Assembly (NCBI GenBank): GCA_905178155.1
Contig: CAJINV010000019.1
Location: 316,475-380,474, forward strand
Length of the DNA: 64,000 nucleotides
From: Amoebophrya sp. A120
Lineage: Eukaryota > Protista > Dinoflagellata
Direction: 5' to 3'
Positions 13,060 through 52,760 of the stretch are shown here, piece by piece (the stretch's first letter is position 1; the number at the start of each line of letters is the position of its first letter). The translations under genes and the position numbers were made by a program. Under the pieces are notes generated by a model. The model was not told the DNA's origin and made no database searches. It worked only from the letters and a program-made list of their open reading frames with translations.

Positions 13060-16000
13060 CTACATCCACTTGTTATTCAGTGACACGACCCGGCTTTTGC
13101 TTCCGTCCTGCACGGTCGGTACGGACGCTAAATCATGCACCGCCCCCTCCTTCTGCGCCGCGGCCGAACGGCACTCGAGCCGGACCTCCCCCTCGTACAG
13201 CCCTCGTTGCATTTGCTCGATGGTTCTCGTGCCGAGATCTTGCATGCCGTGCTTCACGCCCTGGAGAACGTAGGGAATTAGAGCGGAGACGGAACCCTGT
13301 GGTCAACAAGATGGTATCATTGTAGAAAAGTGCTTCTCGTCTGTACCTAAACCTATGCACCTCACTGCATTGATCAAGCCAAAAGCGTTTAGCCACACAC
13401 GACCAGGCACCGTCACACGATCCATCACAACAGATTCATCTCCGGATTGGCAGGCAAACGGTATTCAAACCGTCCTTCTTGCATCAAAAGATAGTTTGTT
13501 CTATACCTTGTCAATCACTGCTCCGGCGACCCCCGTCCGGACGTATCCTGAGTAAAAACGTACCCACGCCAGAGTTGTAATGCAGATTTGCAAAGACAGG
13601 AAGACTTGTAATGCGCATCCCCATGCGAGCCATTTCCAGTCGTGTTTTGGAATTTGTGATGCTGTGAACAGGATGAGCAGCTGGATTTGTGATGCGGCTG
13701 CACTTGCTAACCTGCACCACACTGCAGAGTGCAACTTGTCATGCGTGACTCACAAAACGGCTAGGTTTGTGTTGCACAATCCCCATCCTGACTCTGATGT
13801 GGGTACGTTTTTACTCAGGATAGGACGGAAGAGGTCGTTAGGTGCATGGAGGTCCTCCTGTGGCCACTCGCTGCGTTTCTACCCGTGCTATCAAAAGGAA
13901 AAATTCCCCCGCCTGGTATCAAAAAGAGGTTTCTGATGCTGGATTTCAGTACACAGACCAGATTTGTCTTGCAGTAGAGGACTGCAGGCATATGCCAAGC
14001 CTGAGCCGCGATGTTTTGGCGTAGGCTCCTAGCATGAAAAACGTCGATGGTGTAGGCCCAATAGCATCACAAACCGCCTGCATGATGCGGCGGATTCTCT
14101 GGATTTGCCTGCATGCAAGACAGACAGGATTTGTGGTCACAAATACGCATCACAGATTTTCAGAAGGATGCGCTTTCAACACGGGGAGGGAGGATTTTTC
14201 CTCACGATATGTGCGGCTGCTTGGGCTCAGGGATCCGGAACCGCCTCCGCCGGCGCTGGAAGCCGTGCCACGAATACCTTGCATACAGAAAGGAAATTAT
14301 ATCGAGCTGGACTACGAGGTGAAGAGAGCATAATCGAGATGAGCATTTCGATATCCGCTTTTCGTCTATCTCTCAACACACCACTTCCTGTTCCTTGTCG
14401 TACCAGGAGAGCGAATAAAATGCGCGAAAAAGTAAGTAAAGTCCCTCAATGTTACTGTATGTGGTATCACCTCGAAACGCCTTCACGCGGAGGCCGTTGT
14501 GGTAGAAATAGTCTCCCGGCGTTTCTTCTGTTCCCGCGAGCATGGATCCGCAAACCACAGCGGCAGCGCCAAGACACAGCGCCTTCATCATTTGCCCACT
14601 GTTACCGACACCGCCATCTGGGAAATTTTTTTTTTGTGAAGAAAAGGAATGCTTCGAATGATAGCAATCAATACACGTAGATAGGTAGCACCACCACGTG
14701 GTCCCAAGAACACCACGCCCTTGTTGCAACAAGTCGCAGGACAATAAAACATCTTCCCTTCTTACCGGCCAAGACCGGCACCCCGTATTTTTCTCTCGCG
14801 TATTTTGCCACCGTATAAACCGCAGTTGCTTGCGGTCTACCCACCGCCGCCACATCGCCGGTCATGGCAACTGAGCCGCTACCCATTCCCACCTTTATGG
14901 CGTCCGCTCCGGCGTCGCAAAGAGCCTGGTTTGGGGCGCGGTTTGGATCATTGTAATTTACTAGCATGGGGATCAGAATTATTGGGGTACGATACTGCAA
15001 GACGCCATTTATCTGCATGGAGAGAAGCGAACACTCATACAAATCTCGTCCGTGCATACCGAATGAAAAAGTGAATGGAGCTGCAACACCTTATATTCAT
15101 ACGGTACCTTAGCCTGTCTGCAACTGACAACGTTTCCGGCGACGACGTCTATGCCTGGAAAAGACTTTTTGATCTTTTTCAGTAAGTCGATCTGCCCCTG
15201 TGAGTCCCCCTGGTCCGAATCCAAACACAAAACATCAACGCCACATTGTACGCATCTCTGTGCCCGGTAAAAAGCGTCTTCGTTTTCGCCGTGGGACAGA
15301 CAGGGTATCGCTGCAGCGACCTGTTTTGAATGAATTTACGTCGAATTTTCAATTCGATTTCCGCATCACAGGTCTTCTGCATCGTGTGGACCACAGTGCT
15401 GACAACGAAGAAGAATCGATTCGGAAGAAATAATCGGAAAAATGCAAACCACACGCGATTAGACATCATGGTCTCCCTGTCTATAAATGTTCGTACCAGC
15501 AGCTGTTTATTCGCGTCTTTACTTGCCAGCGGGTATTCTCGATTGGTTTTCAGGTCTGTCCTTGAAACCAGCGCCACCAAATCGCCCTCCTTGTTGACGA
15601 TGGGCAGCTTGCCCACCTTCGCCTCCTGCAGTTTCTCGTTGGCCTTCTGCAGGGATATTGGTTCTATCCCGGTGATTAAATCCGTGGTCATCACCTCGGA
15701 AAGCTTGGAATTTCTATCTTCCACCAGGTCAATATCCCGGCTGGTGACAATGCCGAGCAGTTTCCCGCCAAACTCGCCCGTGGAGGTGATTGGTGCGGAG
15801 CTGTACCCCCGCTTCTCCTTCATTTTGTCCAGATCGCGAATGGTTTGGTTCGGTGTCATGCACACAGGGTCCATGATGAACCCATTCTCGTACCTTTTCA
15901 CGTCCAAAATCTGTTGCGACTGCGTTTCCACGTCCTGGTTCCCGTGGATGATGCCGATACCGCCCCACAGCGCCATGGCGATGGCCATTTCTGCCTCTGT

Positions 16001-16404: not shown

Positions 16405-17686
16405 GATTTTCGTTGTGTGTTTTGTTCTTGCCACCAAGATGAATCCGTGGTCTGTGTCGCGAACTAGAAAGCAGGAGTCCTCGGTCGTTGACAGCCCACG
16501 ACAATGAACGCGACCTAGAAGTGCGGAACCTCTCTTTCCTTTCGCCCTTCTTGAGTCTACTTCTTAGCGTGAGGAGCACCGAACTCAGAACTCACGGCAG
16601 GTCACGAGGACAAGAGTGTTCTTGCAGGTGTGCGTGTTCCCGGCCGACCGAAATTGCTCATGCAGTAACCAGCTGCGGTCCTCGAGGACTCATGGCGAAG
16701 GACGAATATGCCATCTTGATTCTTGGTCGTGATAAATCATTCTCCTGCATAGGTAAATGGAGAAGCTCTGCACTGTCTGCTGCCCACACGCTTGGCCCGC
16801 TTCTGGTCGAATGAAATGTGACCGAAGACAAACGATGTTCTTGAACATCTTCGTACATCATAAGCAAGTACTCGCAAGTACAAGAAGAGAGGAAGCACGA
16901 AAAAAAGTGAAAGTCCAAAGAACGACAAAGATCTCATCAACAGATGAAAAAGCGAAAAAGGACCGAGAACCAGGCTTATCAAAATCAGGATCTTTTCATT
17001 CTTAGTTCAACAGGGCCAAGGCCAAGGCGATGTGCTGATCCTGCATTTTCCTTTTGAACACGACGGTCCAAGAAAAGCCGGTGGCTTCGGCTAATCCACA
17101 AGCCTTCAGAGACGATCTTCGCGGACGATTACCGAGGCCGCTAGCTTTATTTCCGACCTGTCGTGTGCACCGTTTGTATCGCGGCTCTTGTTCTTGAGAG
17201 TCTTCGTCTTGTGCGAATGTTGTTGAAGTCGCATTGCCATTTGAGTTCAGTGCTCCAACAGGTCTTCAAAAAAAATCCGATAATGTTGACTTCAATCATC
17301 CGTCTCCTTTATAGCCTTTCAGTTTCTTCACGTTCACTTTACGGCATCCCTTCTATTTTTTGTTTTTCCGACTTTCTTGTCCTCGACAACTTCACTACTT
17401 CACTCTCTACTTCTAGATATTGTTTTCAGTTTTTCACTGATTCGGGGATTGTCAAAAATTGGCTTGTTTTATTCTGAGTCAGTCAGGTGAATTGAAAAAA
17501 AGCAGCACTGAAAGAATGTGTAGTTATGTAGCTGCAAAATTGAAGTCTACTGGATTCAAACTGAATCAAACGATCGTACACGGAAACTACATCAGCATCT
17601 TGATCTAGCACTTGCACTACAATATTTTTACTTTCAAAAAAAGAATTTCACAAGTCAATTAACTCAAAGCCTCGTCAACACCTTTC

Positions 17687-20600
17687 CTAGCTTACCCAGC
17701 TCTGCAAGTAGCTCCGATTTGCCTCCAGCCCCTCCTGCAAGACGTGTTTCTGAAAGGCAGAATCATTGCCCACGACGTGCTTGTAGGCGATGGCCAACGG
17801 CTGACACACGACGAGAATGAATCCCAGCGTTACTTTCGACGTGTCCGTCGCGTCGCGGTCGCAAAACGGGGAAACCTGCGGAAAAAACTCTCGCTGCACG
17901 TCCCCCTGGTTGAAAGTATGGATCGCAAAAGCTAGGGAAGTAGCCCAGGCCCACCTCAAAGTTCAAATGAAATTGACCTATCGTGCGAGCCCGGCGAACT
18001 ACATGACAAATATCAAGCTTTCGATCATCTACGGTGGAAGCACTTCTGTCGTGCAATTGCTATCTGCAGATCATCCTGGAGGTATCTATTCACACCTGTT
18101 TCGCAGCTTTTGCAGTGCATAGAAAAACTCATCATGGAGCTTCTCGCTCCACCGGAGCATCTGCTGCAGCGGCCGGCAGCACCAGGAATAGTCGGCGTGT
18201 CCTGAGTAAAAACGTACCCACGCCAGAGTTGTAATGCAGATTTGCAAAGACAGGAAGACTTGTAATGCGCATCCCCATGAGAGCCATATCCAATCGCGTT
18301 TTGGAATTTGTGATGCTGTGAACAGGATGAGCAGCTGGATTTGTGATGCGGCTGCACTTGCTAGCCTGCACTACACTACAGAGCTCAACTTGTCATGCGT
18401 GACTCACAAAACTCCTAGGTTTGTGTTGCAAAATCCTCATCCTAACTCTGGTGTGGGTACGTTTTTACTCAGGATACGGCGAGCTTCAGTGTCATCGCCA
18501 GCAGCAACGCCACATCTTCGAACGAGGCCAGCGTGTCCATGCCCGCGGCAAGCTTCGTCTTGAACAGGCTCATATGCATTGCAAATATGTCTGGGTCTGG
18601 ATGGATTCAACTTTGTGATGCGAGTTCTACATCATGACGAAATCTGTCATGCATGGTCAGCAAAAGACCCCATTTCCTGTTACAGAAAGGGGGCACTTGT
18701 CATGCGGATTAGGCATTGGGGTACCTGCTCGGAATCTGTGATGCTAGGGCTTGCATGCCAGACGATCTGAGCTAGGCAAAAACTGCATCACAAATGTCTG
18801 CACTCTTCCAGACCCAGACATATTTGCATTTGGTAGCTCACCTCGCGGAAGTGCTGGCTCAAGTCCGTTTTCAAAATCGCGGCGATCAGTAACTTGCGGA
18901 ACGCTTCCTGCATGTCTTTGGGCACGTGCAGGAGAAAGTTCAGCTCCGGGTCGGCTAGGTTGGTAAACGTCAAGGACAACGAGTAGGACTGGTTCACAGC
19001 CTTGTCGTTGTATCGGATGGCGCGCGGGTGCTTCACCTGAATCAGGAAGTCGTTCGACAAGCCGGGGTACTCGAGGTACAGCGTCATGCACCCGAAGAAG
19101 AGCGTGAACATGTGCAGCGGCATATCATAAGGAAAAATCCCCTCTCCCCATATCGAAACGGTATGGCACCGAAAATTTGCGCTGCTGATTTGAGACCACA
19201 AGTAGCCATGTCTGTCTTGCAAGAAGACAAGCGCAGAGGCTTCCTCGCCATTATGGAATCGATTTGGCATGCTGTTGGGCCTAGAGGACAGCCGTTTGCA
19301 ATGCTAAACCACTAGACCCAAACCAACGCCCCTACCTAGGCTGAGGATCTGGCTGCGATGCCTTACTGCAAGACAAATCGGATTTGTGTACGCAAATCCA
19401 GCATCAGAAATTTCGTTTTGATGTGGGGAGGGGGGATTTTTCATGTTGATACGGCATCAGGTTCGGGTTTTGCTGCAGCAGCCCGTGCTGCAGAAAGTAG
19501 TGCACCGACTGCGCCATGTATCGCAAGAAAAAACTGCTTCACTGTGAACTTGTGATGCAGAAAATGGGACACAGAACTCTTTGTCTTGCTACAACTGCAA
19601 GGCATTAGATTTGCAAGCGTGTTTTCCCTTAGGAAGCGCGCATGACAAAGTTTCAGTGTCATGTGTAGCAAACTTCTGATGCAGATCTTGCAAAGTCATC
19701 ACAGTGAAACAGTTTTTTCCTGTGATACCATGTTGCAGGCATGCGCGAACCCGTGGAACGGCACCTGGGCGCGGTGCCGCTCCTGCGCGAAACTGCAGAA
19801 ATTGAACAACAGGTCGAAATCCAAGTTCAAAATGCCCACCAAATCGTAGCAGATCAGCAGTTTGAGGAAAATCACCGGAATGGCGTTCACGTCGCACACC
19901 TCGGCCGCCATCAGCATGTCGCATATTGTGAGGAAAAATCCCCCCTCCCCATACCAAAGTGCGATACTTCAGAAAATTTGTGATGCTGATTGGACGCCAC
20001 AAATCGTCTCTGTATTGCAAGGAGGCAAATCCAAAAGCCCCGCCGTGTTCTGCGGGCAATTTGCAATGCTGTATGACCTACGGAGGACATGCCTGCCTTG
20101 CTAGGCGGCTACGCCAAAACGTCCCTACTCCGGCTGTGAATCTGTCTGCAGTCCTCTACTGCAAGACAAATCCGATTTGTGTACCCAAATCCTGCATCAC
20201 AGATTTCCATTTCGATACGGGGAGAGGATATTTTTTCTTTCGATATCGCACGACCAGTCGTCCATCAGCCGCAACGCGGTTTCGATCTGCTCCTCCTTAT
20301 CAAATGCAAATATGTCCGGGTCTGGAAGATTTGGGGAGTTTGTCATGCAAATTGTACATGGCCTCCGATGCCTGTGATGCATTCTCTAGCATCACAGCTT
20401 TCGCAATAAAGTCAAATATCCTAAACCCTAGACCCATAAAACCCTATCGGCGGACCGGGACGGAAGCAGGACGTAGATCGGAGGGAAGAAGATGTGGCGA
20501 AGGGGCGTAGGGGCCGCCTGATCAGAGAAAAAGCGCAAACCGCATGGTCTGAACCTAAAATTACTATGAGAATGTTCATAACCCGAGAGGATAACGACAA

Positions 20601-34750: not shown

Positions 34751-35152
34751 GGCATCTGCATCTCCGGCAAGCGGGGTAACGTCCTTCTGTTCCTCCGGTG
34801 TTTGGTGATCCGGGGGTAGGTGCAGCTGCGACGGGGAAGAGTATAAGTGACTGCAAACAACAGTTGTGTCTGGTCGTGGGTCTACGTAGTTGTAGAGTAA
34901 TCACAGGAATACGGCTCTGTACAATCTCTGTCTGTGAGGGGCCTAAGACTGTGAAAAGACATATGGATGCAAAACAAAATCATGTAAATCATTTCTCATT
35001 CAATTCTCCGCAGACCCTAGCAAACAAGACCGAATCTGAATTGCATACGAAGTACTGCACCGCGATGGCGACGAAAACGGAAACCACCGCAAGAGTCGTA
35101 TCCGGAAAAAAAGCGTGTCAATAACATCTCTGACTTGCTGATGTTGCAACAG

Positions 35153-35951
35153 AATGAATGGACCCTTTGATGTCGTGCTTATCTTTTTCCCACCTGGCCC
35201 AAAAAAAAATTTGCCAGGCCAGGTAAAAGAGTGCCGTGGTGTTTGGGCCAACTTTTTTTGGGCCGATGCGGTCTTTTTCCTTCCGATCGCAATGCTATGC
35301 TCTTACCGAGCCTCAAAGTCTGGAGGCCCAGGTAAGAGCACAGCGTGCTGCTTGTACTTCAAGATCGCCCCCCCTTATCTGGCCACTTTCCCGGGCCAGA
35401 ACATTTTCGCATCAGAAACACCACGCTCCCCCATCATCGATCTGGCCACTTTCTCGGGCCAGGAGAATTTCGCATCACAAGCGCACCGCTGTGACAGTGC
35501 CTGGCCTTAAAACCTGGCAGCCCCGGCAAAAGAATGCCGTGGCGCCTGTGCCAACTTTTGCGGGCCAGAGCAATCTTTTTCCCAGGCGCCAGGGTATGCT
35601 CTTACTTGGTCCGAGAGTCTAGGCCCAACTAAAAGCATAGCGCGGCGCTTGCGCTGCAAGATTACCCCCTTCACCTGGCCACTTTCTCGGGCTAGGGCAG
35701 GCACCTTGTGGCCACTTCTCATCGGCCCGGGAAATTTTGGTCAGAATTGTTCTCATTTTTCGCCCAGCTCGCGACTTCGGTGACTGTTTTTATTCTCCGT
35801 TCGATCGCGTGCCGCAGAACTGCAGACGCTTTTTCGGAAAACAGAAACCATCTATTTCAAATCTATTTGGAATCTATTCCGAATCTATATGGCTGTCGAA
35901 GTCTCCCATTGCCAATGAATGGACCCTTCGACGTCGTGCTTATCTTTTTCC
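35153..35951. repeat. ~800-bp segment bounded by 38-bp direct repeats, with internal diverged duplication
   Basis: AATGAATGGACCCTTYGAYGTCGTGCTTATCTTTTTCC at 35153-35190 and 35914-35951; repeated CTGGCCACTTTCYCGGGC units inside. Confidence 0.65.
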
Positions 35952-38517
35952 ATTCGCTTTTTGGTTACCTGAAACTTTTTCTTTTTCACGGTTTCTGTGT
36001 CACCACAGCTGATGTTAACTTGTTGTCCCTTTGACTTGTGGCACAAGAACATTATGACGGCATAATGCCGTCGTATTGGTTGCACCTACAACCACTTGCA
36101 CACCACCACTTACAAGAAATGGACCTGTAATAACCTGGAATGGTCAGTGCTGAGGTACTAGAGCAGTTGCTTTTACAACAATACGCTTTTTCTACCTGTG
36201 ATACAGTTTCAATCCCCTGTACCACCAGAGCGACGACTCGTGTTGCTGCTCGCGGCTCGAGACGGCAAGATTTTTAGGCACTCCTTCGGCGCGAGACGCG
36301 GGCTTTCCTTTTGCATTACCCTCGCCTGGGAGCGCTGGTTGAGATGACGAAGACGAGGCGGGGCGAGCAGAAGTAGCTCTTGGCGATGCTGGCATCTTGT
36401 ATCGTGCTGCAACTATGAGGCTGAAATCAAGTACTTTTCGGTATTTTTCAGGCCGAAGAGGTAGGACGCCACCAAGCTGCAATACTATCGGCGCTAATCT
36501 ATTCCTACGTGATCCCTTAGACAGAGCTCTATCCTGCAGTCTTTGCAGATGAGAAAGTGAATAAAAAATTGGACCGACGTGTTATTCTGAAACCTTATTT
36601 TTTCCGACCGAGGCGCATTTATGTACACCTTTGGCTCTTGTTTCAGAGGCAGCGACGCCAGCTGCGATCGCCTTCTGGCCCAAATCAAAAAGTCCACGGA
36701 GGTCTTTCTATTTTTTTTTTCCCGCGTGCGGAATACATGCGGTTGAAAAAAATCATGTTTGCAGCCGTAATTTGCTCAGCACTTCACTTGCGATTCAGGT
36801 TTTCAAAACACAACACACGCACGCGCGTGAGCGACCACACGCAAGGAAGCACGCACGAAAGTCCCTTTTTTCCTCTTTCCTCTGTCCTTTTCCTCTTTCC
36901 TTTTGCTTTTCCATTTCCTTTTCGGCAAGTAAAAGTAATAAATATTTCGACTAGAACTCAATAGAAAAAATAGAGAAGCTCTAAAATGGAACTGCCACAG
37001 CTCCGGATCACAGAGATAGTACGCCTACATACTTACAGTGCAAAGGCTGCGAAAGCCTTTCCTCCCTGATCTTGTAGTAAGTTAGCGAAAGCGAATCATA
37101 TTTGGCATAATATATAATCTACTTACTTCCTTTTTCGCTTGCCTGGGCGTCGCTGGCGTGAATCATAGTTCAAGCCCCTAAAAAAAGTGATCCAAATTAC
37201 CTCTTTATCTTTTCTCCAGATACGTATGATGATGATCGCTGGGCACCCTTCTAAGAATAACGAACATAGCTAAACGCCGCGGCGGAGGTAGTGGGGTCGC
37301 TTGCGCTTCTTGCCTTCGTCCTGCCCTGCCCGCGGCCCAGCCGCGCGCCTGCTTTTCGCGGGCCCGCCGGGCAGTCTGTCGCGGATAACGTTACGGCCTT
37401 TTGCAAGTTGCATAAATTTCTCTCCGGAAGCCAGCCACAACGCTTTGGGGCCGATCCGGGCGCCGCGGGGGGCGCCCAAAAAGCAAAGAAAAATCGGGGC
37501 CAAAGCCCGCGAGCTTCTGTGCTTCGTGCCTCTGGCGCGCTTTTTCATTTTTGTGTATGTCTCCATTTTCTTACGGCTGCACTTTTTCAAGAGCTACCGA
37601 ACACCAGAGCCCGCCGAAAAAGTGGCCGCTCTCATGGCGGTCGGACTGCCATCAAAAGCGCCCCAACATCGTGGCCGCACCATGCGGCTTCGGCGTTCTG
37701 AGTTTGCGCGCGCTTTTTTTTGGCGATCTTTTGGGCGCCGCAAATCGCCAGAATCCGAGGCGGCCGGCGCCTCCGACGGACGCCGATTTTAATCACTTGC
37801 CATCGTCGTTTTATCAATATCAATCGCGGACCGCTATATCTCCGCCGCGGGTCGTCGTGAACAAAGCCAGACATTGCCTCTTCTTAAGTAAAAAAAAAGC
37901 AAAGCAGGATTGAGAACTGCCGCTCGTCTTTGGTGATTCCTGTCAAAGAGTTTTTTCGTTTCTTTTCGCGGACATCAATCTATCGGGATCAACGATATGG
38001 TTTTTCATTGACAATTTCTATTTCATCCTTTTAATAACGGCAAAAAATGGCAAATAGCACGCCTCGACACTGAAACTAGGTTTTTTGTCAACAAACGGTA
38101 TACGGTTACTTTTCATTTTTTGAACATTGTCCTCCTTCGGGATAGATACATAAACTCAGTCCGTCTCGCCCGGCGATGGCGGGTAAAATGATTGAAAATT
38201 CAAATTTGTAGGTCAAGACCGCCTTCAACATCTTCTGCGTAAGTAGGCAATCCCAACTCGAGTCTCTGAAGATTTTTTTGAAAAAGCAAAATAAAAACTG
38301 CTACTGTAGACAGCTGAAAGTGATGCTCGCGTTGTGAAGCCTGAGAGAGGGAGTGAGAGCTCATCCTCAATCTCATGTTGGCCAATGCTTTACGAAATCA
38401 TCTATCCTTGATACTTATCCCAGCAAAATTTACCTCAACATGCTTCCGGCCAACAAAAGTAGAACAAGATGAAGATCGTGATCATTTCTTTCCACCTAGA
38501 TAAGTAAAAAAATCTTT

Positions 38518-41500
38518 TCATTCCACAAACTGCCACAGAGACGCGTCCGCGACGACCTTCTTCCAATTTGCGCGCAGCCCCATTCGCGCCGCCTTCCCCG
38601 CCCCGCGGCTTGTGATGCGGCCACCGCACGCCTTGGGACCGAAGTCGCGCAGGAAAAGACAGAAGGTCTCCGCGCCGTTTCGCTGACTTTGGTATCCTGA
38701 GTAAAAACGTCCCCACCCCAGAGTTGTCATGCTAAAGGAATTGCAGCACACTTTGCCCTCCCCTCTGCCCCAGGCCGCAGATGGCTTGACACGCAGGGGG
38801 GGTAGGTCAGGCGGACACCGAAGTGCCATCGCCATCATCTCCCGGCCACTTGCCATACTCTTACGCAACCTGCCATACTCCTCACTTTTTCGCAACCAGC
38901 CTTACTTGTCTCACAACCAGCCTAACTTTTCGAGCCAACACTTAGTCCTTTTGCCAACAGTTTCACGCCCACATCCAACACGCTAACACTATGAGTGGAG
39001 AAGTCCAGGTCTTCAGTAATAATTACCATACTGATACCTGCGGCAACATCTCCATTGCGTTACTATTCAGAAGGCTGCAAACACCAGAGGCAGATAGCGA
39101 CGCGCGCATGCCTAAGATGCGCGCATGCCCATGCTGCAAACCCCAGAGTTGTCATGCAAATGCGCAATGACAGGAACATTTGTAGTGCGAAACTCCATGA
39201 GAGGGATTGCCAGTCGTGTTTTGGCATTTGTAGTGCTGTAAACAGGATGAGAAAATGGCTTTCTCATGCGGCTTTCCTTGCTAGCCAGCACTACGCTGCA
39301 GATGGAAACTTGTCATGCAGACCTCCCAAAACTTGGGGATTTGTGTTGCAGACTTCACATCTTGACTATGGTGTGGGTACGTTTTTACATAGGATATCTG
39401 GTAGAGCATGTTCACTCCCAGACTTGCTTCCAGCATGGTGGCATCCGAAAAAAACATTTCCGGCAAAAAAATTGCGTATCACGTGCAAAAATGTCTGGGT
39501 CTGGAAGAATGCAAGATTTGTCATGCGTATTTCTCATGACCCATGATGCCTGTAATGCATGACCTAGCATCGCAGACTTTTAGAGGGCTTCCTGATGCAT
39601 CTTCCGCATGAGAAAAACCCTGCCCGTGTAGCACAAATTGTACCCCTCTTGCTGGTCATGCAATACAAATTTTTTTGGTTAACAGACCAGAATCTCAACG
39701 TTCTTGTCTCAACGTTCATGAGGCCGATGGGCAATCGTCTCAACGATTGCCCGGCGGCCCCAAACAACGCTCGTCGGTAGCGGCGGAGAGGTACGCCCGC
39801 CGCCATTGACGCGAGGCGGGGTCGATGAGACACAAGGAGGGCAAGGACGCGGCAACACACACGGGCAGGGGTGCGGGTGTGGAACACAACACAAGGAAAG
39901 GGGAGAGTCGTCGGCCAGGGCAGCCGCCGCCGGCCGGCCGGCCGGCGGCGGCTGCCCTGGCCGACGACCAGAACCCCAAACCCTAGACCCTAATCCCTAA
40001 ACGGTGCCGAAGTTGAGGCGTCGGTGTCAACGTTGGGGCGTTTTGTCTCAACGTTGAGACAAATTGGCGTGGTTGAGATTTTGGTTTGTCAACCAATTTT
40101 TTTTGAGTCCAAAAACAGCATGACAAATTGCAATCTTCCAGACCCAGACATTTTTGCACTTGATATTGCGTCGCCCGGACCGATTTCCACCTCCGAGATG
40201 GTCACGTTGTGCGTTTGGAACTGCGTCCGAAGCCGGCGAACCGCTGCGAGCTGTTCCTGCTCATTTTCCGTGTCTGTCACTTCATCTTTACTACTTTCCC
40301 GGTTAAAAATAGTGCCTCGTTCTTGAGATAAGCCGGTGGTAGCTGTGGTCTTCCTCCTCCCGTGGTTTTCCTTGTCCTCCTGCACCAGCATGAGATCCTC
40401 ACTAATGCGTCGCAGCTTCCACAAAGTATCAAAAGCCTCCCCGGAGTACATCAAATCTTGCCCTGGGGAAGAGGAAAACTCTGATGTTTTTCTCCCCAAG
40501 TCCGCTCGCAAGAAATCCCCTTCCTGTGAAGTTGGAGACAAGTGCGACGTGCTGCGGAAATTGTCGTCTTGCTCGTTCGCTGCAATGAGTGGGAGACCGT
40601 CAAACAGGTGCATTTTGCGCCGCCCCCAGTAGTTCACCAGTAGCTTTGCGTTGCAGTCATATGCAATACAAATTCATTCCCGTACATGTACAAAATGCAT
40701 GTACAATTCTCGCTATACTTGGAGCGTCAAACTTGTCATGCTGACAACTAAAGATTAAACACGAGTTTCGTCATGCAGAGACAGCATTTGGCCGTGTACG
40801 GGAATAAATTTACAGTGAATACGTCAGTATGCGCGTTCACAACCGTCCCCGCGGAGCCGCCGGTCAAATGCCTCGATTCGAAAAGCAGATGCATCCCGAT
40901 ATCGGGATCAATCGCCAGCTCGGTCGGTGGGCTCTGCGGCGCGGAGAGGATCTTCCGGTGCAGGTATGGCAAATGTGAATGCGGACAAGTGACTCCCCCT
41001 GGTCGTGGTGTTCCTCCTTAATACAAATCAATGGAGAGTACAAACCTACTCACTCTTTGTTTTGATTGTTATTTCGCACTTTTTGCATGACAAGTTTCGG
41101 GATGATCCCAAACATAACTACATCACTCTAGGCGTAAGTAGTTTTATCCTGCGCGAGCTTCAACACTGCTGTTTTCGCATGACAGGTTGCTGTCCGACAT
41201 CCCATGCTGCAAGTGAGGGAAAGATTAAGGGAGAGTCTTCTTGTTGCAGTCTGATACCAAAACGGGCGCGGACGCTGGGTGAATGTCTTCGACACGTTCT
41301 GGCATATCCTCCTGAAGGTAGAGCTGGTACGGGATTAAACTAGCACCATTCGACGTAGAGAGGCCCTTCGTTTCTGTACTGCCGCTGCTCGCAGTGGTCG
41401 CATAGTTAACATCAAGCCCCTGTGCTGGTCGTGCCTGCATGTGCGGAAAATCTTCCACGGGTGCTGCGGCATCTGTTGACGACCCCATGACCCCGGCCTC

Positions 41501-44500
41501 GGGCGGCCACGGTAGAAGCAGTTTCCGCATTTGCTCCATCGAGCAGACGAAGTCCACCGGGCGGTCGACCCAAGTTTCGATGGCGCCCAGGTGCCACGCG
41601 GCGCAGTAAAACTGGTTCGCCGCCGGCCCCCAATCCTCAAGCGAAGCGGTCCCATTCAGGGCGTGAAAGGCCTGCGACACGTGCACCGGCACCTCGAACC
41701 TGCCAAAGCTTCGAAAGTCGTTGCACATCGTCTTCCACCGCTTCCGGGTTCCGAACCGCCCAAAACGAGACTGAAAAAAGCTACGCGGCGCGGCGTGCAG
41801 CGCGACCAGGTTCCGCTTCATTTGCGCCTGTCGGATTAGGTCCGCGCGGAGAACATCGGCATCTTCGCGCGCATGCGGTAGCGGGTAGGGGCTGGCTTTG
41901 GTCTGAGGGGGCCTACTCCGGGCAGAAGTAGTTGTGCTTCGTGGTGGCCCAACAGCAATGTCGTACTTCGTGGTAACCACAGTCTGTTGTCGTGGTTGCG
42001 CGCTGCCGGCGGGAGGCGTTTGCTGGTGGAAACGGCCGGCGCCTGGGCCTTCACCATTTGAAGGTCCGCCCTGAACAACAACTGCAGGTCCAGAGCCTGC
42101 TTGTCCTTTCGCGGGAACACCAAAACCAGAGGGCGGGTTCTTCTTGTTTACTCCTTGCTTGTCTTTCGCGGCTTTTTGCTGTGCGGTTTTTTGCCCCTCC
42201 TCTTCCGCCTTTTCCGCCCTTCTATCAAATGTAAAAATGTCTGGGTCTGGAAGAATGCAAATTTGTCATGCTCGTTTGGCATGACTCTTAAATCTGTCAT
42301 GCACATTACCAAAGAGCCCCACTTTGCTGTCATGCAGAAACGTAGTTTGTCATGCAGAATAGGCAACACCTAGAAGCTCAGAAACTTGTCATGCTGAGCC
42401 AGCAATTGTGGCCTCCTCATGATACGCCACACAGCATCACACGTTTCCAGACCCAGACATTTTTACATTTGATACCTTCTGATGCCCTCCAATACTTCCG
42501 CAATGCTCCGCGTCCCCTCCGGAACCCCGACGTTGCGGAGGATCAACGGCTTTCGGGTTGTATATCAAATGTAAAAATGTCTGGGTCTGGAAGAATGCAT
42601 GTTTGTCATGCTTGTCTGGCATGACTCTTAAATCTGTCATGCACGTTACCCAAGAGCTCCATTTTTCTGTGATGCAGGAATGCAGTTTGTCATGCAGAAT
42701 AGGCAACACCTAGAAGCTCAGAAACTTGTCATGCTGAGCGAGCATTTGTGGCCTCATCATGAGACGCCACCCAGCATCACAAGTTTCCAGACCCAGACAT
42801 TTTTACATTTGATATTGTAACGTGGTTCGCTAAGATGCGCAGCAGCTTGCGGTTTTTCCATCCCTTGTTGAAGCGCGCAAAGTTCAAGGTCCGCACGGAA
42901 GACATTTGAAAGGATGCAGGAGGGGCGGTTTGCTGTAGTCCGGCGCGTTCTTGCTTACGACCAAGTGGCGCTTTTCGTGTGTCCGACGCCGCGTCGTTGT
43001 GTTGCTTAAGTTTCTTCGCTCCATGACCTTCTTGCTCTTATCCTGAGTAAAAACGTACCCACACCAGAGTCAGGATGGGGATTTTGCAACACAAACCTAG
43101 GAGCTTTGTGAGTCACGCATGACAAGTTGCACTCTGCAGTGTAGTGCAGGTTAGAAAGTGCAGCCGCGTCGCAGATTCATCTGCTCATCCTGTTCACAGC
43201 ATCACAAATTCCAAAACACGATTGGAAATGGCTCTCATGGGGATGCGCATTACAAGTCTTCCTGTCTTTGCAAATCTGCATTACAACTCTGGTGTGGGTA
43301 CGTTTTTACTCAGGATAGTTCTATTGTCCGCCCAAGCTCAACCGGCGTCGTGCGCTCTGGACGCGCTGGTTGGCCGTGCTTGGTATAACCCGCTCAGGTG
43401 TTACAATCTCAAGCGTTACAATAGAATTTGGAAATCTGTGATGCCAGAATGCATGATCTAGCCAATTCTCATAGGATTGCGCATGACAGGTTCCGGAGCA
43501 TCAAACCCCACTACAATCTGGCGAAATTTGTATTGCAGAAAGTGGAACGCTCTGCGAGTCTGTCATGCTCATCATGCAAGACAAATCTCAGATTCTATTG
43601 TAACGTTTGAGATTGTAACGTTTGAGCAAGTCATACTTGGAAGAGGGACTATTTATTCGGTGTTTCATCTTCGCTCTAGTTCGTCTTCTTGGGGTTCTAC
43701 TGACACCACTTTCGCTGCTAGCACTTATCCTATGTAAAAACGTCCCCACCCCATAGTCAAGTTGGGAACATAGCAAGACAAATCCACAAGTTTTGGAAGC
43801 CACGCATGAGAAGTTGCAGTCCGTAGTGTTGTGCATGTTAGCAAGGACAGCCGCATCACAAATCCATCTGTTTATCCTGTTTACAGCATTACAAATTCCA
43901 AAACGCGATTGGAAATGCCTCTCATGGAGATGCGCATTACAAATCTTCCTGTAATCGCAAATCTGCATGACAACTATGGAGTGGGGACGTTTTTACAAAT
44001 GATAGCACTCTCTTCTTCCTCACTGTCGCCTATCCATAAAAAAATGACCATTCCCATCCATTTTTTGCATGACAAATTCTAGTTTGTTATAATGAGCTTT
44101 ATGCATGTTTTGCATGACAAATTGGATGAGGATGGTTGTTTTTTTGTGGACGATATCGTCAGCAGAAGAACTACTTCCCCCTTCGCCGCGCTCTTGTTCT
44201 TCACTACTACTGTCAACGCTATGGAAGCGTCAGGTTTGAAATCGTCAAAGTTAAAATAATAGTTTGTCATGCATAAAATGCATACCGCGAAATACGTGTG
44301 TTGCAGAGCAGGCAAGTGAGGCAGATTGTGAGCCTGTTGAGGGGTAGAAACTGAGCTGCTAAAGTAGCATGAGAAAATCAGTCATCTTTGCCTAAACGGC
44401 ATGACAAACTGCATTTCGGCTCTACCCAAATTTGTCATGCGCCACTTGGAAACTGCGTCACCACTTGCATCCATTTTATGCATTACGAAGTTATTTCAAC

Positions 44501-45913
44501 TTTGTCGATTTCAATCCTGACACATCCATAAACGCTGCGGCGAGCGTAACTTTTCGACGCCGGCGTGCTGCCATAATTTTTGTCGTCCGTACTGGCGCTT
44601 GCGCTGTCCTCCTCCTCGTCATCGTCGGGAGCAGCAGTGCTAGCAGTACCAGATTTCCTCGGTACCACAACATCTTCAACCACGCGAGCATGAGAAGGTA
44701 GACGATCTACGTGATGTCGTGCTCTCTTGTTTTTGTGTCCACCTGCTTCCTTCTCTCGTCGTGCAGGGTTAGTAGTAATATGATTCATCTCTTGATTTTT
44801 CAATTTTTCCATTTTCCTCATCGTGCCTCCTCCTCCTTCCAGCTGCACTGGTCGCGGCCGCCCGTGAAGCTGGCGAGAAAGCTGATGTTGTTGACCGTCG
44901 CCGCAGTAGTCCTTGTCATCTCCACCGCCCGACACACCACGCCTTGCAGGGATAGATGAAGAGGATGGCACTTGCAGATTATGATTACCATAGGGGTTCT
45001 TCACGTTGTAAAAATAATCTTCATATGTTGCGTGAACATGATCGTTTGTGTTCATCCCGATATCAGACGGAGATCCATTTGGCATTTGTTCCCAAGCTGC
45101 TCTACCGCCCCCATCTGAGTAGGTCGTTTCACCGCTCGACGCGAACCGGCTCGCCGTTCCGCATGGTGCCTCCGTCTGCTGGTAGTACTGCCCCCCAGAT
45201 GAGGTTCTTGTAGCGTCAACCTCAACACGAGAAGTTGGAAACGAGGAGAAGAAGGAAAAACCAGATCCTGAAAAAGATTCTCCGGGGGGAAATAAAGTAG
45301 AAGCACCTCTTCCTGCAGGTAGTTGTTCATCTGTTCGTGTTCTTCCAGAGCTGGAGTGAAAAGAAGCGAGAACTGAACTCGCAATTGAGAACTCAAAAAA
45401 GCTGTCCCACGTCCTCTTCAGGAAATAAGTTGAAGCTCCTTTTGGCTGCTCGTCCTCGGCCTCCGAAGGGACAGGGAGAAAACTCGTCTGGTGCAGGTAC
45501 CCGACCAGCACGACGGAACCCGCTGCGAGTAAACGCCAGCGGAACAGCAACCCAGGGAAGTAGTTATCATGGTGGCTTGGTTTATTGCGCTCTGTAGTAG
45601 ATGATGATGTTGATGAAGGTGGACAATTTATAGCATTTCTAAGGCCCGTCCATGGAGTCCCGGCCCCGGTACAGGTGGTAAGCGGTTTCATAATGGTCTC
45701 CGTCTCGTGATGAGTTAGTTTCTGCCTGTCGCGAAGACCTGTAGCCTGGCACGGTTCCTTTTTTGTCCTCGTGCTGGTGTTTGACGACGCAATAGTAGCT
45801 GTGGCTGGCACGACTGCCCCGGTTGGTGGTTTCGATGTCAACATGCTCGTGCTGCCACACGAAGGAGCCTGGGCATGTTTTGGCCGATAATTCCCTTTCG
45901 TCGCCGCCGGCAT
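38518..45913 (-). CDS. JmjC/cupin-like protein, paralogue 2 (H-x-D...S) with long N-terminal extension and a TM segment; 10 TIR elements
   Basis: Frame continuous from ATG 45913 through the elements to KPLILRNVG; then YQLYL, NAHTDCNAKLL...GRRKMHLFD, IGPGDAIFLPEMFFSD, VNMLY, FGPKACGGR, stop at 38518. Confidence 0.78.
38693..39396. mobile_element. Family B TIR element with ~350-bp nested insertion (~38782-39132)
   Basis: TSD TTTGG/TCTGG; collinear with copy 9674-10003 except for the insert. Confidence 0.85.
39477..40165. mobile_element. Family A TIR element carrying a nested MITE
   Basis: TSD TTGCG/TTGCG. Confidence 0.9.
39677..40094. mobile_element. Nested MULE/Mutator-like MITE
   Basis: TIR GGTTRACARACCARAATCTCAAC, 9-bp TSD AATTTTTTT, subterminal TCTCAACG repeats, 62-bp internal palindrome. 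Confidence 0.78.
40660..40821. mobile_element. Singleton (N) TIR element splitting the JmjC HxD region
   Basis: TIR TAT.......AAATTYATTCCCGTACA; TSD AGTCA/CGTCA. Confidence 0.87.
42223..42474. mobile_element. Family A TIR element (252-bp subfamily)
   Basis: TSD CCTTC/CCTTC. Confidence 0.9.
42563..42814. mobile_element. Family A TIR element (252-bp subfamily)
   Basis: TSD TTGTA/TTGTA. Confidence 0.9.
43039..43317. mobile_element. Family B TIR element (opposite orientation to 13544-13822)
   Basis: TSD GCTCT/GTTCT. Confidence 0.9.
43384..43635. mobile_element. Family E TIR element
   Basis: TSD CTTGG/CTTGG. Confidence 0.9.
43726..44004. mobile_element. Family B TIR element
   Basis: TSD GCACT/GCACT. 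Confidence 0.9.
44031..44155. mobile_element. Singleton (O), shortest TIR element (125 bp)
   Basis: TIR core TCCAYAAAAAAA..ACCAT..CATCCA; TSD TCGCC/TCGTC; frame restored. Confidence 0.8.
44220..44530. mobile_element. Family C TIR element
   Basis: TSD AACGC/AACGC. Confidence 0.9.
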
Positions 45914-49456: not shown

Positions 49457-50431
49457 CCTGCTCCGGATGTAGTTGTTGAAACAGCGCTCCTTGTTTTTCC
49501 TGATTAAGGGGTACAACTAGCTTAATTACGTATAGGTGCGGCGACCAAATAAAATGTTGTGATCACAATTTATTATCCTCTTCTTCCTCTTCTATCCTCT
49601 TCTTCCTTCCTTCTTAATGTACTGGGAAATTAAAATGATGAGCAAAACATTCTAAGCGAGCGCAATAAGAGGGGAAATTCTACGTATAAAGAAGTACGAA
49701 GGAAATGGGGGCGAAAATGGTTTTGAGCGTGTCACCTTCACCTCTGAGACTAGTGGGTCAAGAAAAATCCAGGGAAGTTGCTATGAAAATCATCGGTTTT
49801 TTCTCATGATGTATGAACAAGCGAGCTCGAGGACGAGAATCATGTGGTCTTTCGAGCACGCATAATTTTTTTTTACAGAAATTATCCAACGATGTCATTT
49901 CCAACGGTACGACCGGAATGTGGTACGAAGGAATAGAGAACGACCGAGCTGTGCCAGAATAAGACCACGTTCTTGGACGAGAGCTTTCTTGTTGCAGCAC
50001 GAAGGGACCGAATATTTCCGGAGTGTCAGTGTTTTTTGTGTTCACGCCTCTACAACAAAACTCTTTTGCACGAAAATTCAGATGATTACAGGCAGGTGAG
50101 TAAGTCAGCAATTATAATCCGACGACAGAGACCGGTCCCTAGGGACGAAAAGACAAACCGAGGAAAATTGCAAACATCAATAGAGCATCTGTCGTTAACG
50201 AATCACGGCACCGAAAGTGGAAAAATGACAATGACGCTTTCTGTTCTGTAGGCGAAATAAACCGATGAACGCTACATCTGACAGCGAACGACTTTTACCG
50301 GCAATATTTTCTCTTATTACAGGCATAGCAGGAGCAAATAGTACTTTCTTATTCTTACGAGTACTTAGATAGTGCCTTCGAAGGAGAACAATTTTCGTCT
50401 GAACTGTCCATCGCCCTTCTCCTGTTCTGCG

Positions 50432-52600
50432 TTAAAAAGCTGTGGAGACAAAAATTCTTCTTGTGGCTAAAACCGCATTAGAAGTTGTTGTATTAATCAT
50501 CTTCATCCCCAGCTTGTAGATATAGTTTTTGTTGCAACGTCTCACCGCAACCGCGTTCTGTTCGTCTACCGCCTTACATTCGGTACTTCTGTTCGCGTCA
50601 TTTTTCTGCGTTGCGGATGCGAGGCTTGATGCGTTGTCACTTTCAAGAACGAGATCTAAGACAAGTACAGCATCGTGGTCCGCAACTCCATCTACACCTG
50701 CTGCAGGTCTGCGAGGTACAAAAATTGAGAAAAAGGATGATGAGCTACAACGGCGTCTAGCAGTAGCAATTCTGTGTTTCGTAAAAGTTGCTCTTTCCTC
50801 GGTGGAAGTGACTGACAGGTCTGTGCTGTTTTTTGGCACGACATCCACGAGTTTGTTAATGTCGAACTGCAATTGTTCAAGGAAAATTAGCACGCTAATA
50901 CTTCTTGATAAAACTGACTGTGATAAAGAAAAAAGCTTCATTTAGCCCCGTTCACTCCTTTAAAAATTGTCTCCATGTCCTTTCGCATGCGCCAGTGCCC
51001 GCCGACGGCTGGTGTATGGATGTGTTTTCACTTTCAGTTGAAGAAGTGATTGCGAGTGCCTTTCTTGTGCATAAGAGACATCCGTAAAAACAAAAGACGC
51101 AAAAAGTAAAAACAACTACAAGGCAGCATAAAATAAATTGATACGTCCCTTCGTCTTGTCGTAGAAGTCCGAGACGTTCTCCGTCTTCGCTTTGTACGCC
51201 AGCAGCTCGAGGGCATAAAAATCCCGGCGGTTATGGATCGAAATTTTTGCAGTGTCACGAACGGATATTAAACAGAATGCAGTACGATACGTGCCATGCC
51301 AGGAACATATAAGATCATCAGTACTACTACACTGATAGTGTTGATCTACTTTCGCAACAAATGATCACGAAGATGGTCAGTGTACACCTGGACAACAAAA
51401 AATTTTGCAGAATGTAAGTCTGCTCGTGAATTTCTTTTTTATCTTCATCATCATCTTCGTCGTCCTGATCCTGCAATACAAATTTGCTGCTTTCCTTGGA
51501 TATTCTCGGCCACGGATGTACTGGTGCAGCAGTAATGGCACGGTGCATGGCCACACGACGGTACCTGGGGCAATGTATTTGTCATGCTATAGCATAGACT
51601 GCAACATCATCAGTGATAGTTGTACACAATAATGAAAACGTGGTCATGCCAAACATCATGCGACGCTGTGTAGTTGCTTCATCTGCAAACCGCTGACTGA
51701 GCTTCTAAAAAACATACAAAAGTAATCCCACAACAAATACGGCAAAAAGTTCCCGCTTTAATCACCCTGACCCTGCCCCAGGCGGTCATTCTTGGGGTGA
51801 TAAACGCAGTGTGCGCCGTTTTCAGGATTCCGCCCAAAGCTTCCATCTTGTCAGGTTTTTTGTCCTCGTCAGGTACCAAGCAAATCAAGTACTCCAGCCC
51901 AACACGAAACTTCGTGCAATCCAGCAAACCACTACACACAGTAGAAAAGAACTGACCAGATAAAATTTCACGGTATCAGAAACAATGCCCTGGCTTGCCT
52001 AGCCCGAGCGTGCACCGCTTATACATGCGTAACTCTCCTGTATTATCCAAAGAACAAGCAGCGCAAGAAAGAGCCATGTCTCGTCGCAGATGAAAAGCAG
52101 CAACTGTATCTAAGTCGGTTCTAAGGCAGCAAACATCTCCTGAGAGTGAAGCAGACGGATGAAAAAAGTGCTACTACTCTACTCTCGCGTACTTCGGCTC
52201 TGTGTTGTCGCTCATTCCTCAAAGCTCCACAACAGGCAGAAAAAAAAACAAGTACTTAATACAGGCACGTACAACTAGAACAGAAAACCCGTACGATCAG
52301 ACCAAGACTTCCGCATCCGGTTCCAAACACGGTTTACTCAGTTTCAAATGACTGTATCATACCGTGCTGCTTTCTTGTCGTTTTGAGGTTCCTTGAAAAA
52401 TTCTGTATACTTCGCTGTCTGCGTTCTTGACATGAGTCGATAGGCCGCCAAATGGAGTACTTATTCCAAACTTTCCGTGCTGTGACTCAGGATGTAGTCG
52501 TACTTAGCAGATTTTTTCTGTCGGGACCCGAAGAAGATACCTATTGTCCTTTCACAGGCCCGACGAGAAAATTGTGTCTGGGGGTACCATAACACAGCCG
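50432..52600 (-). CDS. Possible multi-exon hypothetical gene
   Basis: Short protein-like frames ending at GT donors (e.g. HNRRDFYALELLAYKAKTENVSDFYDKTKG near 51150-51235); no homology recognised. Confidence 0.25.
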
Positions 52601-52760
52601 GAGGTCGACAGGAGCAGTCGCGGGTAGTTTTTGTGTAGCGCTGGTCAGAAGCAAGACTAGGAGTGGGAGTTGTCGTGAGAAGTAGATAGATTGTTCCTCA
52701 CGCCGATGATCCACGATTGATCGCGTTTGCTACTTACCCGCACGAGGACAAACTTGTTTC

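Follow-up and report, generated by a model that had tools for sequence, protein, structure and literature searches.

In the 64-kb stretch of Amoebophrya sp. A120 DNA analyzed here (henceforth the window), a single octamer, GCAT[G/C/T]ACA or, on the opposite strand, TGT[C/G/A]ATGC, is a genuine sequence word, shared within a class of inverted-repeat-bounded elements of 125–330 bp and confined to it. The elements themselves are already known, and the octamer shared by their interiors is new. We propose that it is a repeated double-stranded DNA site and a candidate for recognition by a transposase (Ginger/integrase-like) that would mobilize the whole superfamily of elements, a reading to which we give an even chance.

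Abundance and distribution of the octamer

The window contains 236 matches to the octamer pattern, compared with a mean of 8.90 (sd 3.05, maximum 16) in dinucleotide-preserving shuffles, none of 100 of which reached the observed count. The form GCATGACA is the most frequent 8-mer in the entire window (123 copies), the other variants being GCATCACA (81 copies) and GCATTACA (32 copies); in other words, the degenerate position is occupied by C 123 times, by G 81 times and by A 32 times, and T is found there twice, in TGTTATGC, which lies outside the pattern. When each family is reduced to one representative and the terminal 30 nt are trimmed, GCATGACA ranks first among 8-mers, being found in 9 of the 11 families, and the remaining top 8-mers of this representative set are overlaps or variants of it. 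The enrichment of the octamer exceeds a mere copy-number effect. Its fuller consensus is a word of 12–13 nt, RAAYY-TGT-V-ATGC, and two to six strict copies are present per element.

The recognized elements, which cover 18,498 nt (29% of the window), hold 212 of the 236 octamers (11.5/kb), and the remaining 45,502 nt hold 24 (0.53/kb), ten of which belong to four members of one further small family. Among the RNA-supported features, the 16 element-type introns have 54 octamers in 5,015 nt, the six canonical introns one in 1,109 nt and the 25 exons two in 7,874 nt. A previous reading of this DNA from its letters alone (the sequence-only reading) had called the motif scarce in exons and had named its enrichment in elements over exons and other DNA as a check; both hold, the exons being near background. 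TRF, run on two element-rich stretches (13400–14300 and 42100–44600), yielded only four short arrays of period 9–15; an interior tandem repeat with a period of at least 20, which at 20–80 nt would have been able to give rise to the octamer copies, was not detected in either.

A single superfamily of inverted-repeat introners

The families of terminal inverted repeats had been taken by the sequence-only reading to be unrelated, and here it has to be corrected. All 42 strictly defined elements begin with TAT, in a scan that required TA only, and their termini take the forms TATC, TATG, TATA or TATT. The 5-bp target duplication is perfect in 34 of the 42 and has one mismatch in the other eight. 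Further, most of the strict elements (families A, B, G, H, D and I) feature an A-run at positions 11–15, with families E, F and C displaying the TAT start without it. Thus, on the strength of the TAT ends, the 5-bp duplications and the mostly shared A-run, the families form one superfamily. That the interiors of different families do not align and yet share the motif was correctly noticed: with the motif and its variants masked, the 52 cross-family nhmmer matches drop to none between annotated families, and, as far as sequence comparison goes, the octamer is the sole interior similarity between families. The profile of family A is colinear with elements of families B, D, E and F over about 130 nt.

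The architecture is exemplified by a 252-bp element of family A (subfamily A1) at 42563..42814, recovered by a scan for terminal inverted repeats and target-site duplications and constituting a non-canonical intron in a gene on the minus strand. Its 31-nt terminal arms are 100% complementary (left, 42563..42592 on the plus strand, beginning TATCAAATGTAAAAA; right, 42785..42814 on the minus strand) and are flanked by the duplication TTGTA (42558..42562 on the left, 42815–42819 on the right), with which the 5-bp ambiguity of the RNA joint agrees; this joint, seen in the X3 and X5 contigs, connects 42557 to 42815 and skips 257 nt, i.e., the element plus 5. Five of its octamers are on the minus strand. 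The first (42604..42611; TGTCATGC on the plus strand) lies 42 nt from the left end, reads inward and falls within the extended inverted repeat; the second (42635..42642) follows it by 31 nt and makes a 31–33 bp pair with it; the third (TGTGATGC, 42668..42675), fourth (42688..42695) and fifth (42727..42734) are further matches to the pattern. The sixth, GCATCACA at 42774..42781, is on the plus strand, 34 nt from the right end and again reading inward. These positions, and the spacings of 31, 33, 20, 39 and 47, are exactly those given by the sequence-only reading.

A sister A1 element at 42223..42474, 92% identical and flanked by the duplication CCTTC, carries the same six octamers and is likewise excised from RNA. 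Between the two family A introns lies an 83-nt minus-strand exon (42475..42557), delimited by the RNA joints and included in a spliced ORF of 1,271 aa. The following elements are also excised from RNA: a family B element at 43039..43317, removed from the same transcript contig, with four octamers all opposite to the A1 array; a family F element at 43384..43635, with three strict and five relaxed octamers; a second family B element, with four octamers, at 43726..44004; a 125-bp singleton at 44031..44155, for which the RNA skip is 130 (125 + 5) and in which the two octamers noted earlier were recovered at 44067 and 44112; and a family E element at 44220..44530, with TATGGAAGCG... ends and three strict and five relaxed octamers.

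The elements match the introner elements, or repeated non-canonical introns, of Amoebophrya sp. A120 as described in the text of Farhat et al. 2021 (PMC7789003), which Gozashti et al. cataloged anew in 2022 and 2025. Going by the former text, the two have in common an inverted repeat made up of TAT, about seven bases and then an A-run, a length of about 240 nt, the lack of a fixed splice-site pair and of a transposase inside, and the presence of many families that are dense in the genes of one co-oriented block; the direct repeats across the boundaries are 5 bp here and 3–5 bp in the published introners. The same text gives tens of thousands of introners for A120, with no splice-site consensus and with no U1 snRNA found. 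The cataloged introner families number 58 in PMC12130899 and 1,954 in PMC7789003, and the elements of strain A25 differ in their ends and duplications. We did not find the octamer in passages of PMC7789003, its text supplement, passages of PMC12130899 or full-text searches of the Amoebophrya and introner literature, figures aside.

Conservation and geometry

Measured as identity to a reference copy, the motif columns are better conserved than the other interior columns in all seven families tested, namely A (0.811 versus 0.564), B (0.886 versus 0.686), G (0.883 versus 0.556), E (0.917 versus 0.731), D (0.750 versus 0.688), H (0.900 versus 0.720) and F (1.000 versus 0.875), whichever copy served as the reference. 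The comparison with neighboring interior bases, on which the sequence-only reading had staked its proposal, is thus in favor of the motif. Private substitutions in family A (n = 26) are equally frequent in the motif (0.0223) and in the other interior columns (0.0221), and the frequency of variants that copies have in common is 2.6-fold lower in the motif (0.10 versus 0.27); this pattern in family A would suggest that selection acts on propagation and not on inserted copies. In the small families, when pooled, private substitutions amount to 0.031 in the motif and 0.051 in the other columns, a deficit that may leave some room for constraint after insertion. As members of one family do not represent independent observations, nominal p-values are inflated.

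The placement of the octamer relative to the element ends is also non-uniform: at 84 ends, the end-nearest copy reads inward as TGTVATGC in 59 and outward in 20, and is absent from five, and its distance inward from the end clusters at 33–46 nt. Symmetry between the two ends is seen in families A and E, and a one-sided layout in B, G, C and F, whose arrays run one way and leave one end without an inward copy near the repeat. A same-direction pair with a gap of 31–33 bp (about three helical turns) is present in 9/9 family representatives, the null probability for each being 0.06–0.23; the gap is exactly 31 bp in 20 of the 26 family A copies, and the spacing of the pair is fixed while the spacer sequence is not conserved. 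Hence, the helical phasing surmised by the sequence-only reading survives in part: it has the dominant 31–33 bp pair in its favor and, against it, the other common gaps of 20, 39 and 48–49 bp, which are out of helical phase, and a Rayleigh R of 0.35–0.43 at 10.5 bp (obtained from non-independent copies) that is similar at 10, 11 and 16.5 bp, and so with no advantage for 10.5 over 16.5.

Removal of the elements from RNA

In RNA-like contigs, 16 elements are left out with base precision, each skip comprising the element and 5 nt, i.e., one copy of the duplication; 11 of the joints are seen in the X3 and X5 contigs and five in X3–X6, and no fixed GT–AG pair is found at them. The runs X3–X6 derive from one sample of one study, and we accept them as RNA, a presumed status, because six GT–AG introns are removed in them. 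All six belong to the IMP dehydrogenase gene, one at 14618..14765 on the minus strand and the other five at 13296–13505, 14276–14468, 14925–15106, 15319–15494 and 16082–16281 (unshifted cut coordinates). Deletion of the 11 elements with joints in X3 and X5 yields a single minus-strand ORF of 1,271 aa, and all five Pfam-supported ORFs and all six canonical introns are on the minus strand. Two sets of raw RNA reads under the same species label, X9 and X10, gave 10 and 100 matching reads, all of them partial, and no splice information.

In the RNA of the 16 verified element introns, UGUVAUGC accounts for 20 of the motif readings and GCAUBACA for 34. Excision in both orientations is seen for family B copies bearing one motif reading only, an instance of the other orientation being the IMP dehydrogenase intron at 13544..13822, with five octamers running one way. 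An old TAT...ATA element at 17912..18121, which serves as the negative control, is free of strict and relaxed copies, just as this diverged singleton had been said to lack a proper octamer, and is excised precisely in 4/4 runs (a single case). Excision in both orientations and of a zero-copy element disfavors the contention of the sequence-only reading that the motif marks sequence for removal, to which may be added that the canonical introns do without it.

Arrays of intronic splicing enhancers, such as the RBFOX element (U)GCAUG, offer the closest parallel for a role in RNA. The octamer likewise contains GCAUG, is repeated in introns and is depleted in exons; unlike such arrays, it occurs in both orientations, is near background in canonical introns and is dispensable for removal (one zero-copy case). 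By the tests applied here, it therefore fails as a splicing enhancer, there being no single orientation and, from that one case, no need for it in removal.

More broadly, the transcribed octamers could be bound by the excision machinery or fold for it, or could constitute a cue for intron definition or compaction that replaces the splice-site consensus; we consider such an RNA-level signal unlikely, though it is to be taken seriously. It would fit the excision of the elements without a fixed splice-site pair, as well as the text of Farhat et al. (PMC7789003), wherein no U1 snRNA is reported and hairpin-guided removal is proposed. The first and last octamers lengthen the terminal hairpin, giving arms of 55–60 nt with 82–89% complementarity, and in predicted folds P(unpaired) is 0.25 for the motif versus 0.41 for the rest of the interior (33 of 38 elements). 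We also count on this side the GCAUG within the octamer, which we take to be the core of an RBFOX-type intronic enhancer, and the lower pooled rate of private substitutions in the motif columns. However, excision proceeds when just one of the readings is present, whichever it is, and irrespective of orientation, the zero-octamer element is removed in every run, and the motif is near background in the canonical introns of the same transcripts. Moreover, as the interior arrays run one way, the octamer copies cannot pair mutually, and the higher predicted pairing in turn speaks against a single-strand RNA-binding protein; private substitutions in family A are not lower in the motif, and an interval equal to three turns of the DNA helix is meaningless in RNA. 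Separately, complementarity of the octamer to the branch site or to an snRNA was dropped by eye, the best branch-like variant being the excluded one.

The octamers as candidate transposase-binding sites

A real word that is confined to the elements, conserved, scarce in exons and the only interior likeness between families would be best read as the site of a sequence-specific binding factor, and the DNA-binding protein hinted at by the sequence-only reading is in keeping with this, to the extent that the letters can tell. In the mechanism that we envisage, a DDE transposase of the integrase-like (Ginger-like) kind would contact the octamers through a site-specific DNA-binding domain, probably cooperatively and on one face of the helix, and its catalytic domain would work at the TA termini. 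One enzyme would be common to families with different inverted-repeat cores, and only those lineages that keep the sites would go on multiplying, which would leave the sites conserved from one subfamily to another but not in copies once inserted.

Short words bound by a transposase at subterminal or internal positions are well known from Ac/Ds of the hAT superfamily, from En/Spm of CACTA and from the multiple end sites of Mu and Tn7, and the P element has an internal transposase site adjoining its 31-bp repeats. Such words occur in several copies no more than a few hundred bp from an end, are distinct from the terminal inverted repeat, are oriented relative to the end and persist in non-autonomous derivatives. 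The octamer, the binding of which is putative, is similarly present in multiple copies near the ends and distinct from the terminal repeat. In contrast to the mirror-image sets of those systems, several families here have one-way arrays that extend across the element; further, the elements here are introns, and one word is common to families with differing inverted-repeat cores.

Several observations bear on the transposase. The octamers are strand-blind, with 119 copies on the plus and 117 on the minus strand, though the Pfam-supported genes are all on the minus strand; this we count in its favor, along with the inward placement near the ends, the fixed gap of the pairs, the substitution pattern of family A and the base discrimination at the degenerate position. 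On the other side, arrays that run one way, as in families B, G, C and F, are out of the ordinary for classical subterminal sites, the gaps of 20, 39 and 48–49 bp are out of helical phase, and the text of Farhat et al. (PMC7789003) reports no transposase for A120. A Pfam scan of the 105 ORFs of at least 120 aa in the window found matches to IMPDH, CBS, PDEase_I and Adaptin_N only, with no transposase and no integrase-like ORF, and the partner enzyme is drawn from published work.

As regards Ginger/TDD, the first five letters of the octamer fit the TGTNR that the termini of Ginger and Gypsy follow according to the text of Bao et al. 2010 (PMC2836005), and the 5-bp duplication agrees with the 4–5 bp target-site duplication of this group. 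However, the element ends are TAT and not the Ginger-defining TGTNR, which only the internal octamer fits, and that fit is possibly due to chance (roughly 1 in 60); the absence of an integrase-like ORF among the 105 scanned in the window is a further difference. In the text of PMC12130899, family 38 of A120 is labeled Ginger with "5-bp TSD, TA/TA termini", and is said by Gozashti et al. to be without the termini and duplications expected of Ginger; the ORFs described in the same text resemble the integrase regions of Copia/Gypsy.

Instead of a transposase, the DNA could be bound by a host factor unrelated to transposition, chromatin- or transcription-coupled and, e.g., of the alveolate AP2 type, which would act in silencing, nucleosome placement or co-transcriptional hand-over to the removal machinery. 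The same DNA-type features, namely strand-blind use, the 31–33 bp pairs and the discrimination against T, would suit such a factor, as would the report, in the text of Farhat et al. (PMC7789003), that no transposase was identified in strain A120. Yet it predicts purifying selection after insertion, of which family A shows none, and the fixed position of the octamers by the inverted repeats and their inward orientation fit the recognition of ends better; hence, we hold it to be distinctly improbable. That the families merely descend from one ancestor with a repeated word, of which the octamers are functionless leftovers, is scarcely credible, for though the TAT ends, A-run, 5-bp duplications and similar architecture are common to the families, and the family A profile shows the colinearity noted above, neutral decay would hit motif and spacer alike, whereas the motif is better conserved by 0.06–0.33 in 7/7 families, the spacer length is kept though its sequence is lost, and the variable position excludes T.

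Returning to the transposase, an extended proposal is that a single transposase-derived factor reads the octamer, mobilizes dozens of families with divergent inverted repeats and also recruits, acting on DNA or on the folded transcript, a hairpin-guided machinery for excision without splice sites. This is a long shot; if true, a single cis code would join transposition and an intron removal that looks non-spliceosomal. Were the octamer only a transposase site, it would still explain how one enzyme serves families with different inverted repeats. Together with the fixed geometry of the pair, it is the first candidate cis element besides the terminal hairpin. It further provides a handle for finding the protein that moves the elements, both as bait in pull-downs and as a search key for an autonomous partner, and can be used as a covariate in intron-retention analyses over about 30,000 elements.

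Occurrence in metagenomes

A metagenome scan for three octamers at the spacings of the element returned at least 118 loci. Among the matches listed, 32 were mapped; most of these are unrelated short-period satellites (period 8–18 nt or more), and the 32 offer no cross-species evidence for the octamer. Seven of the mapped loci come from one assembly, and five of the seven contain TAT...ATA elements flanked by a 5-bp duplication, those in four of the five being family-A-like.

Element families and their shared interior word

Candidate elements had to show TA at both ends (TA...TA), a 5-bp duplication on either side with no more than one mismatch, and complementarity at 18 or more of 24 terminal bases. 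The scan yielded 47 candidates; five were removed, four as register artefacts within family B and the fifth because the pair ran across two elements. Across the whole window, all 42 retained elements start with TAT and 34 carry a perfect 5-bp duplication. By reciprocal BLAST coverage they form families A (18 copies), B (6), G (4), E (3) and D, H and F (two each), with five singles; after profile searches the recognised element content amounts to 18,498 nt, or 29% of the window. The sequence-only reading had regarded these families as unrelated, a view that fails: they have their TAT ends and 5-bp duplications in common and, as a rule, an A-run at positions 11–15. Moreover, the family A profile runs colinear with members of families B, D, E and F for ~130 nt, and this similarity resides solely in the octamers (GCATBACA, or TGTVATGC on the other strand) and their spacing. 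When the octamers and their one-step variants were hidden (4,572 nt in all), the cross-family profile matches fell from 52 to none between annotated families, with one left at an unannotated place (5973–6161). Tandem Repeats Finder detected no interior tandem array of period at least 20 nt able to generate octamer copies in 13400–14300 and 42100–44600.

The 252-bp element at 42563–42814 has perfect 30–31-nt terminal inverted repeats beginning TATCAAATGTAAAAA, with the duplicated 5 bp TTGTA on both sides; its sister copy at 42223–42474, 340 bp upstream, is 92% identical. The six octamer positions and spacings first read in this element proved exact on a pattern re-count. A further small octamer-bearing family, overlooked by the family profiles, lies at 24570–24705, 28025–28170, 52995–53125 and 60740–60875; it has a 108-nt inverted-repeat core at 28043–28150, ends of the type ...TGCAAAAGTATCG.ACTCGTATAAATGCA and at most three octamers per copy. 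The stretches 35000–38500 and 49500–53000 are nearly devoid of elements and octamers, contain no Pfam-supported ORF, and may be intergenic or lineage-specific gene territory.

Several features of these elements agree with the A120 introner elements as described in the text of Farhat et al. (2021; PMC7789003): inverted repeats of TAT, seven variable bases and then three or more A, 3–5-nt direct repeats, and non-canonical introns (mean 240 nt) in blocks of co-oriented genes. Given this match, the elements themselves were previously known; the octamer code in them is new. The text and text supplement of that paper, and the text and supplement rows of Gozashti et al. (PMC12130899), figures aside in both, yielded nothing on a word shared between element interiors. 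The octamer letters, alone or with Amoebophrya or introner, returned nothing relevant from full-text literature that did not include the Current Biology 2023 dinoflagellate introner paper; the sole joint match was a single occurrence in the searchable text of one 2019 genome paper.

Enrichment, geometry and conservation of the octamer

The window holds 236 octamer matches against 8.9 expected, a count reached by none of 100 shuffles. Recognised elements contain 212 of them (11.5/kb, against 0.53/kb elsewhere), and ten of the remaining 24 belong to another small family, spread over four of its copies. When each family is represented by a single copy stripped of its terminal 30 nt, GCATGACA is the top 8-mer, present in 9 of 11 families, and the other top words all overlap it. 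The fuller word is RAAYY-TGT-V-ATGC, with the variable base being C in 123, G in 81, A in 32 and T in 2 cases. Among features with RNA support, element introns hold 10.8 octamers per kb, canonical introns 0.9/kb (one copy) and exons 0.25/kb, which bears out the scarcity in exons noticed earlier.

Of 84 ends, 59 have their nearest octamer in the inward reading TGTVATGC, 20 have it outward and 5 have none; end-to-first-octamer offsets cluster at 33–46 nt. The most frequent same-direction gap is 31–33 bp, which accounts for 33 of 100 gaps with the strict word and for 75 of 163 with the relaxed one. All nine family representatives have such a pair (random placement probability 0.06–0.23 each), the first two octamers are exactly 31 bp apart in 20 of 26 family A copies, and the spacer sequences between paired octamers differ from family to family. 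The helical-turn spacing proposed earlier fits the commonest gap but not those of 20, 39 and 48–49 bp, which are out of phase with the helix, and the Rayleigh statistic does not single out 10.5 bp.

For conservation, motif columns were set by one reference copy at a time and the remaining copies scored against it. Motif columns beat other interior columns in all seven families with every reference copy (0.811 versus 0.564 in family A; 0.886 versus 0.686 in B), in keeping with the earlier proposal. Among the 26 family A copies, variants common to several copies stand at 0.10 in the motif versus 0.27 elsewhere in the interior, and private variants show no reduction (0.0223 versus 0.0221 in other interior columns). 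Pooled over all families, private variants are slightly less frequent in the motif (0.031 versus 0.051 in other interior columns), "private" being confounded with subfamily divergence in small families. Our reading, at the low power that redundant octamers in each element give this split, is that constraint acts mainly on lineages still multiplying and not on inserted copies.

Elements as introns

Splice evidence comes from the RNA-like contigs (labelled "RNA?") of runs X3–X6, from a single sample and study. Missing from these contigs are six stretches of the IMP dehydrogenase gene (12685–16832) with ends CT..AC on the plus strand, i.e., GT-AG on the minus strand; hence, the contigs behave like spliced RNA and show that the gene lies on the minus strand. 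All five Pfam-matching ORFs (three IMPDH, PDEase_I and Adaptin_N) are likewise on the minus strand. With its six canonical introns (148–210 nt) and two element introns, this gene fits the class that Farhat et al. call "heterogeneous gene". The contigs skip 16 elements, each as exactly the element plus 5 nt, including 42563–42814, its sister, the 125-bp singleton and members of families A, B, D, E and F. Cutting 11 intervals out between 38001 and 45990 leaves one minus-strand ORF of 1,271 aa over 4,347 nt.

In the nested element at 38693–39396, a family B element is split by a 424-nt insert (38718–39141). The full 709 nt are removed in contigs of X3 and X5, and one X3 contig drops just the inner 424 nt and has 2 letters between the two sides that it joins, which hints at stepwise excision of nested introns. 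The same gene holds two further non-canonical introns, 40656–40822 and 40970–41257, skipped as 167 and 288 nt with a joint ambiguity of 4; they have degenerate ends and just 1–2 octamers, and are probably old elements. Raw RNA reads of X10, from another strain under the same species label, pile on a short family B interior piece (43077–43103 and 43796) with a joint going back 23 (69 reads) and consistent loose ends; a rearranged copy expressed in that strain may be responsible.

Recognition of the octamer and proposed transposase docking

Several observations together favour recognition of the octamer on double-stranded DNA. In this minus-strand window it occurs 119 times on the plus and 117 times on the minus strand, i.e., without regard to transcription, and the 16 verified element introns read UGUVAUGC 20 times and GCAUBACA 34 times. 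Single-reading family B copies are excised in both orientations, some sharing a transcript contig with opposite-array family A copies that are also removed. The old element 17912–18121, with zero octamers, strict or relaxed, is still excised in all four runs. Canonical introns are nearly without the word. Taken together, these observations speak against the earlier suggestion that it marks sequence for removal. RNA fold predictions leave motif bases unpaired at 0.25 versus 0.41 for their neighbors, which makes them ill-suited to a single-strand RNA-binding protein. An RNA-level role, to which this predicted pairing might lend a structural part, has a low but real probability. From the sequence-only interpretation there survives a shared, constrained, exon-scarce word, and a host DNA factor as its binder appears less probable still.

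We infer, as the likeliest reading and with about even chances, that the octamer is a transposase docking site. A single DDE, integrase-like transposase, a class suggested by duplications of 5 bp and by the Ginger-like label in the literature, would bind octamer pairs via a site-specific domain and cut at the TA termini. Such a one-enzyme scheme could account both for coexisting families with different repeat cores and for octamers alone surviving between families. Against it count the window elements' TAT ends, unlike the TGTNR pattern that the text of Bao et al. (2010; PMC2836005) gives for Ginger and Gypsy termini, the one-way octamer arrays of several families, the absence of a transposase from a Pfam scan of the window's ORFs, and the report in the text of Farhat et al. 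that none was found in A120. The octamer's own first five letters fit TGTNR, which we treat only as a lead.

The transposases of the P element, Ac/Ds, En/Spm, Mu and Tn7 dock at internal sites beside the terminal repeats, an arrangement that the proposed octamer docking would resemble.

Octamer sets in metagenome loci

Several metagenome loci with octamer sets (L004, L009, L010, L024, L028, L051, L060, L072 and others) are unrelated satellites with periods of 8–18 nt, in which the octamer is a chance of the repeat unit, accompanied by neither TAT ends nor 5-bp duplications. One metagenome-labelled assembly contributes seven loci, L018, L020, L030, L039, L057, L073 and L078; in L020, L039, L057, L073 and L078 there are TAT...ATA elements that have 5-bp duplications and share the octamer arrays. 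Among the loci listed, the elements of L020, L039, L057 and L078 are family-A-like, and L073 (170–318) has a 149-nt element with a 5-bp duplication that resembles the window's further small family. The contigs of L020, L039, L057, L073 and L078 are probably from the same organism or a close relative.
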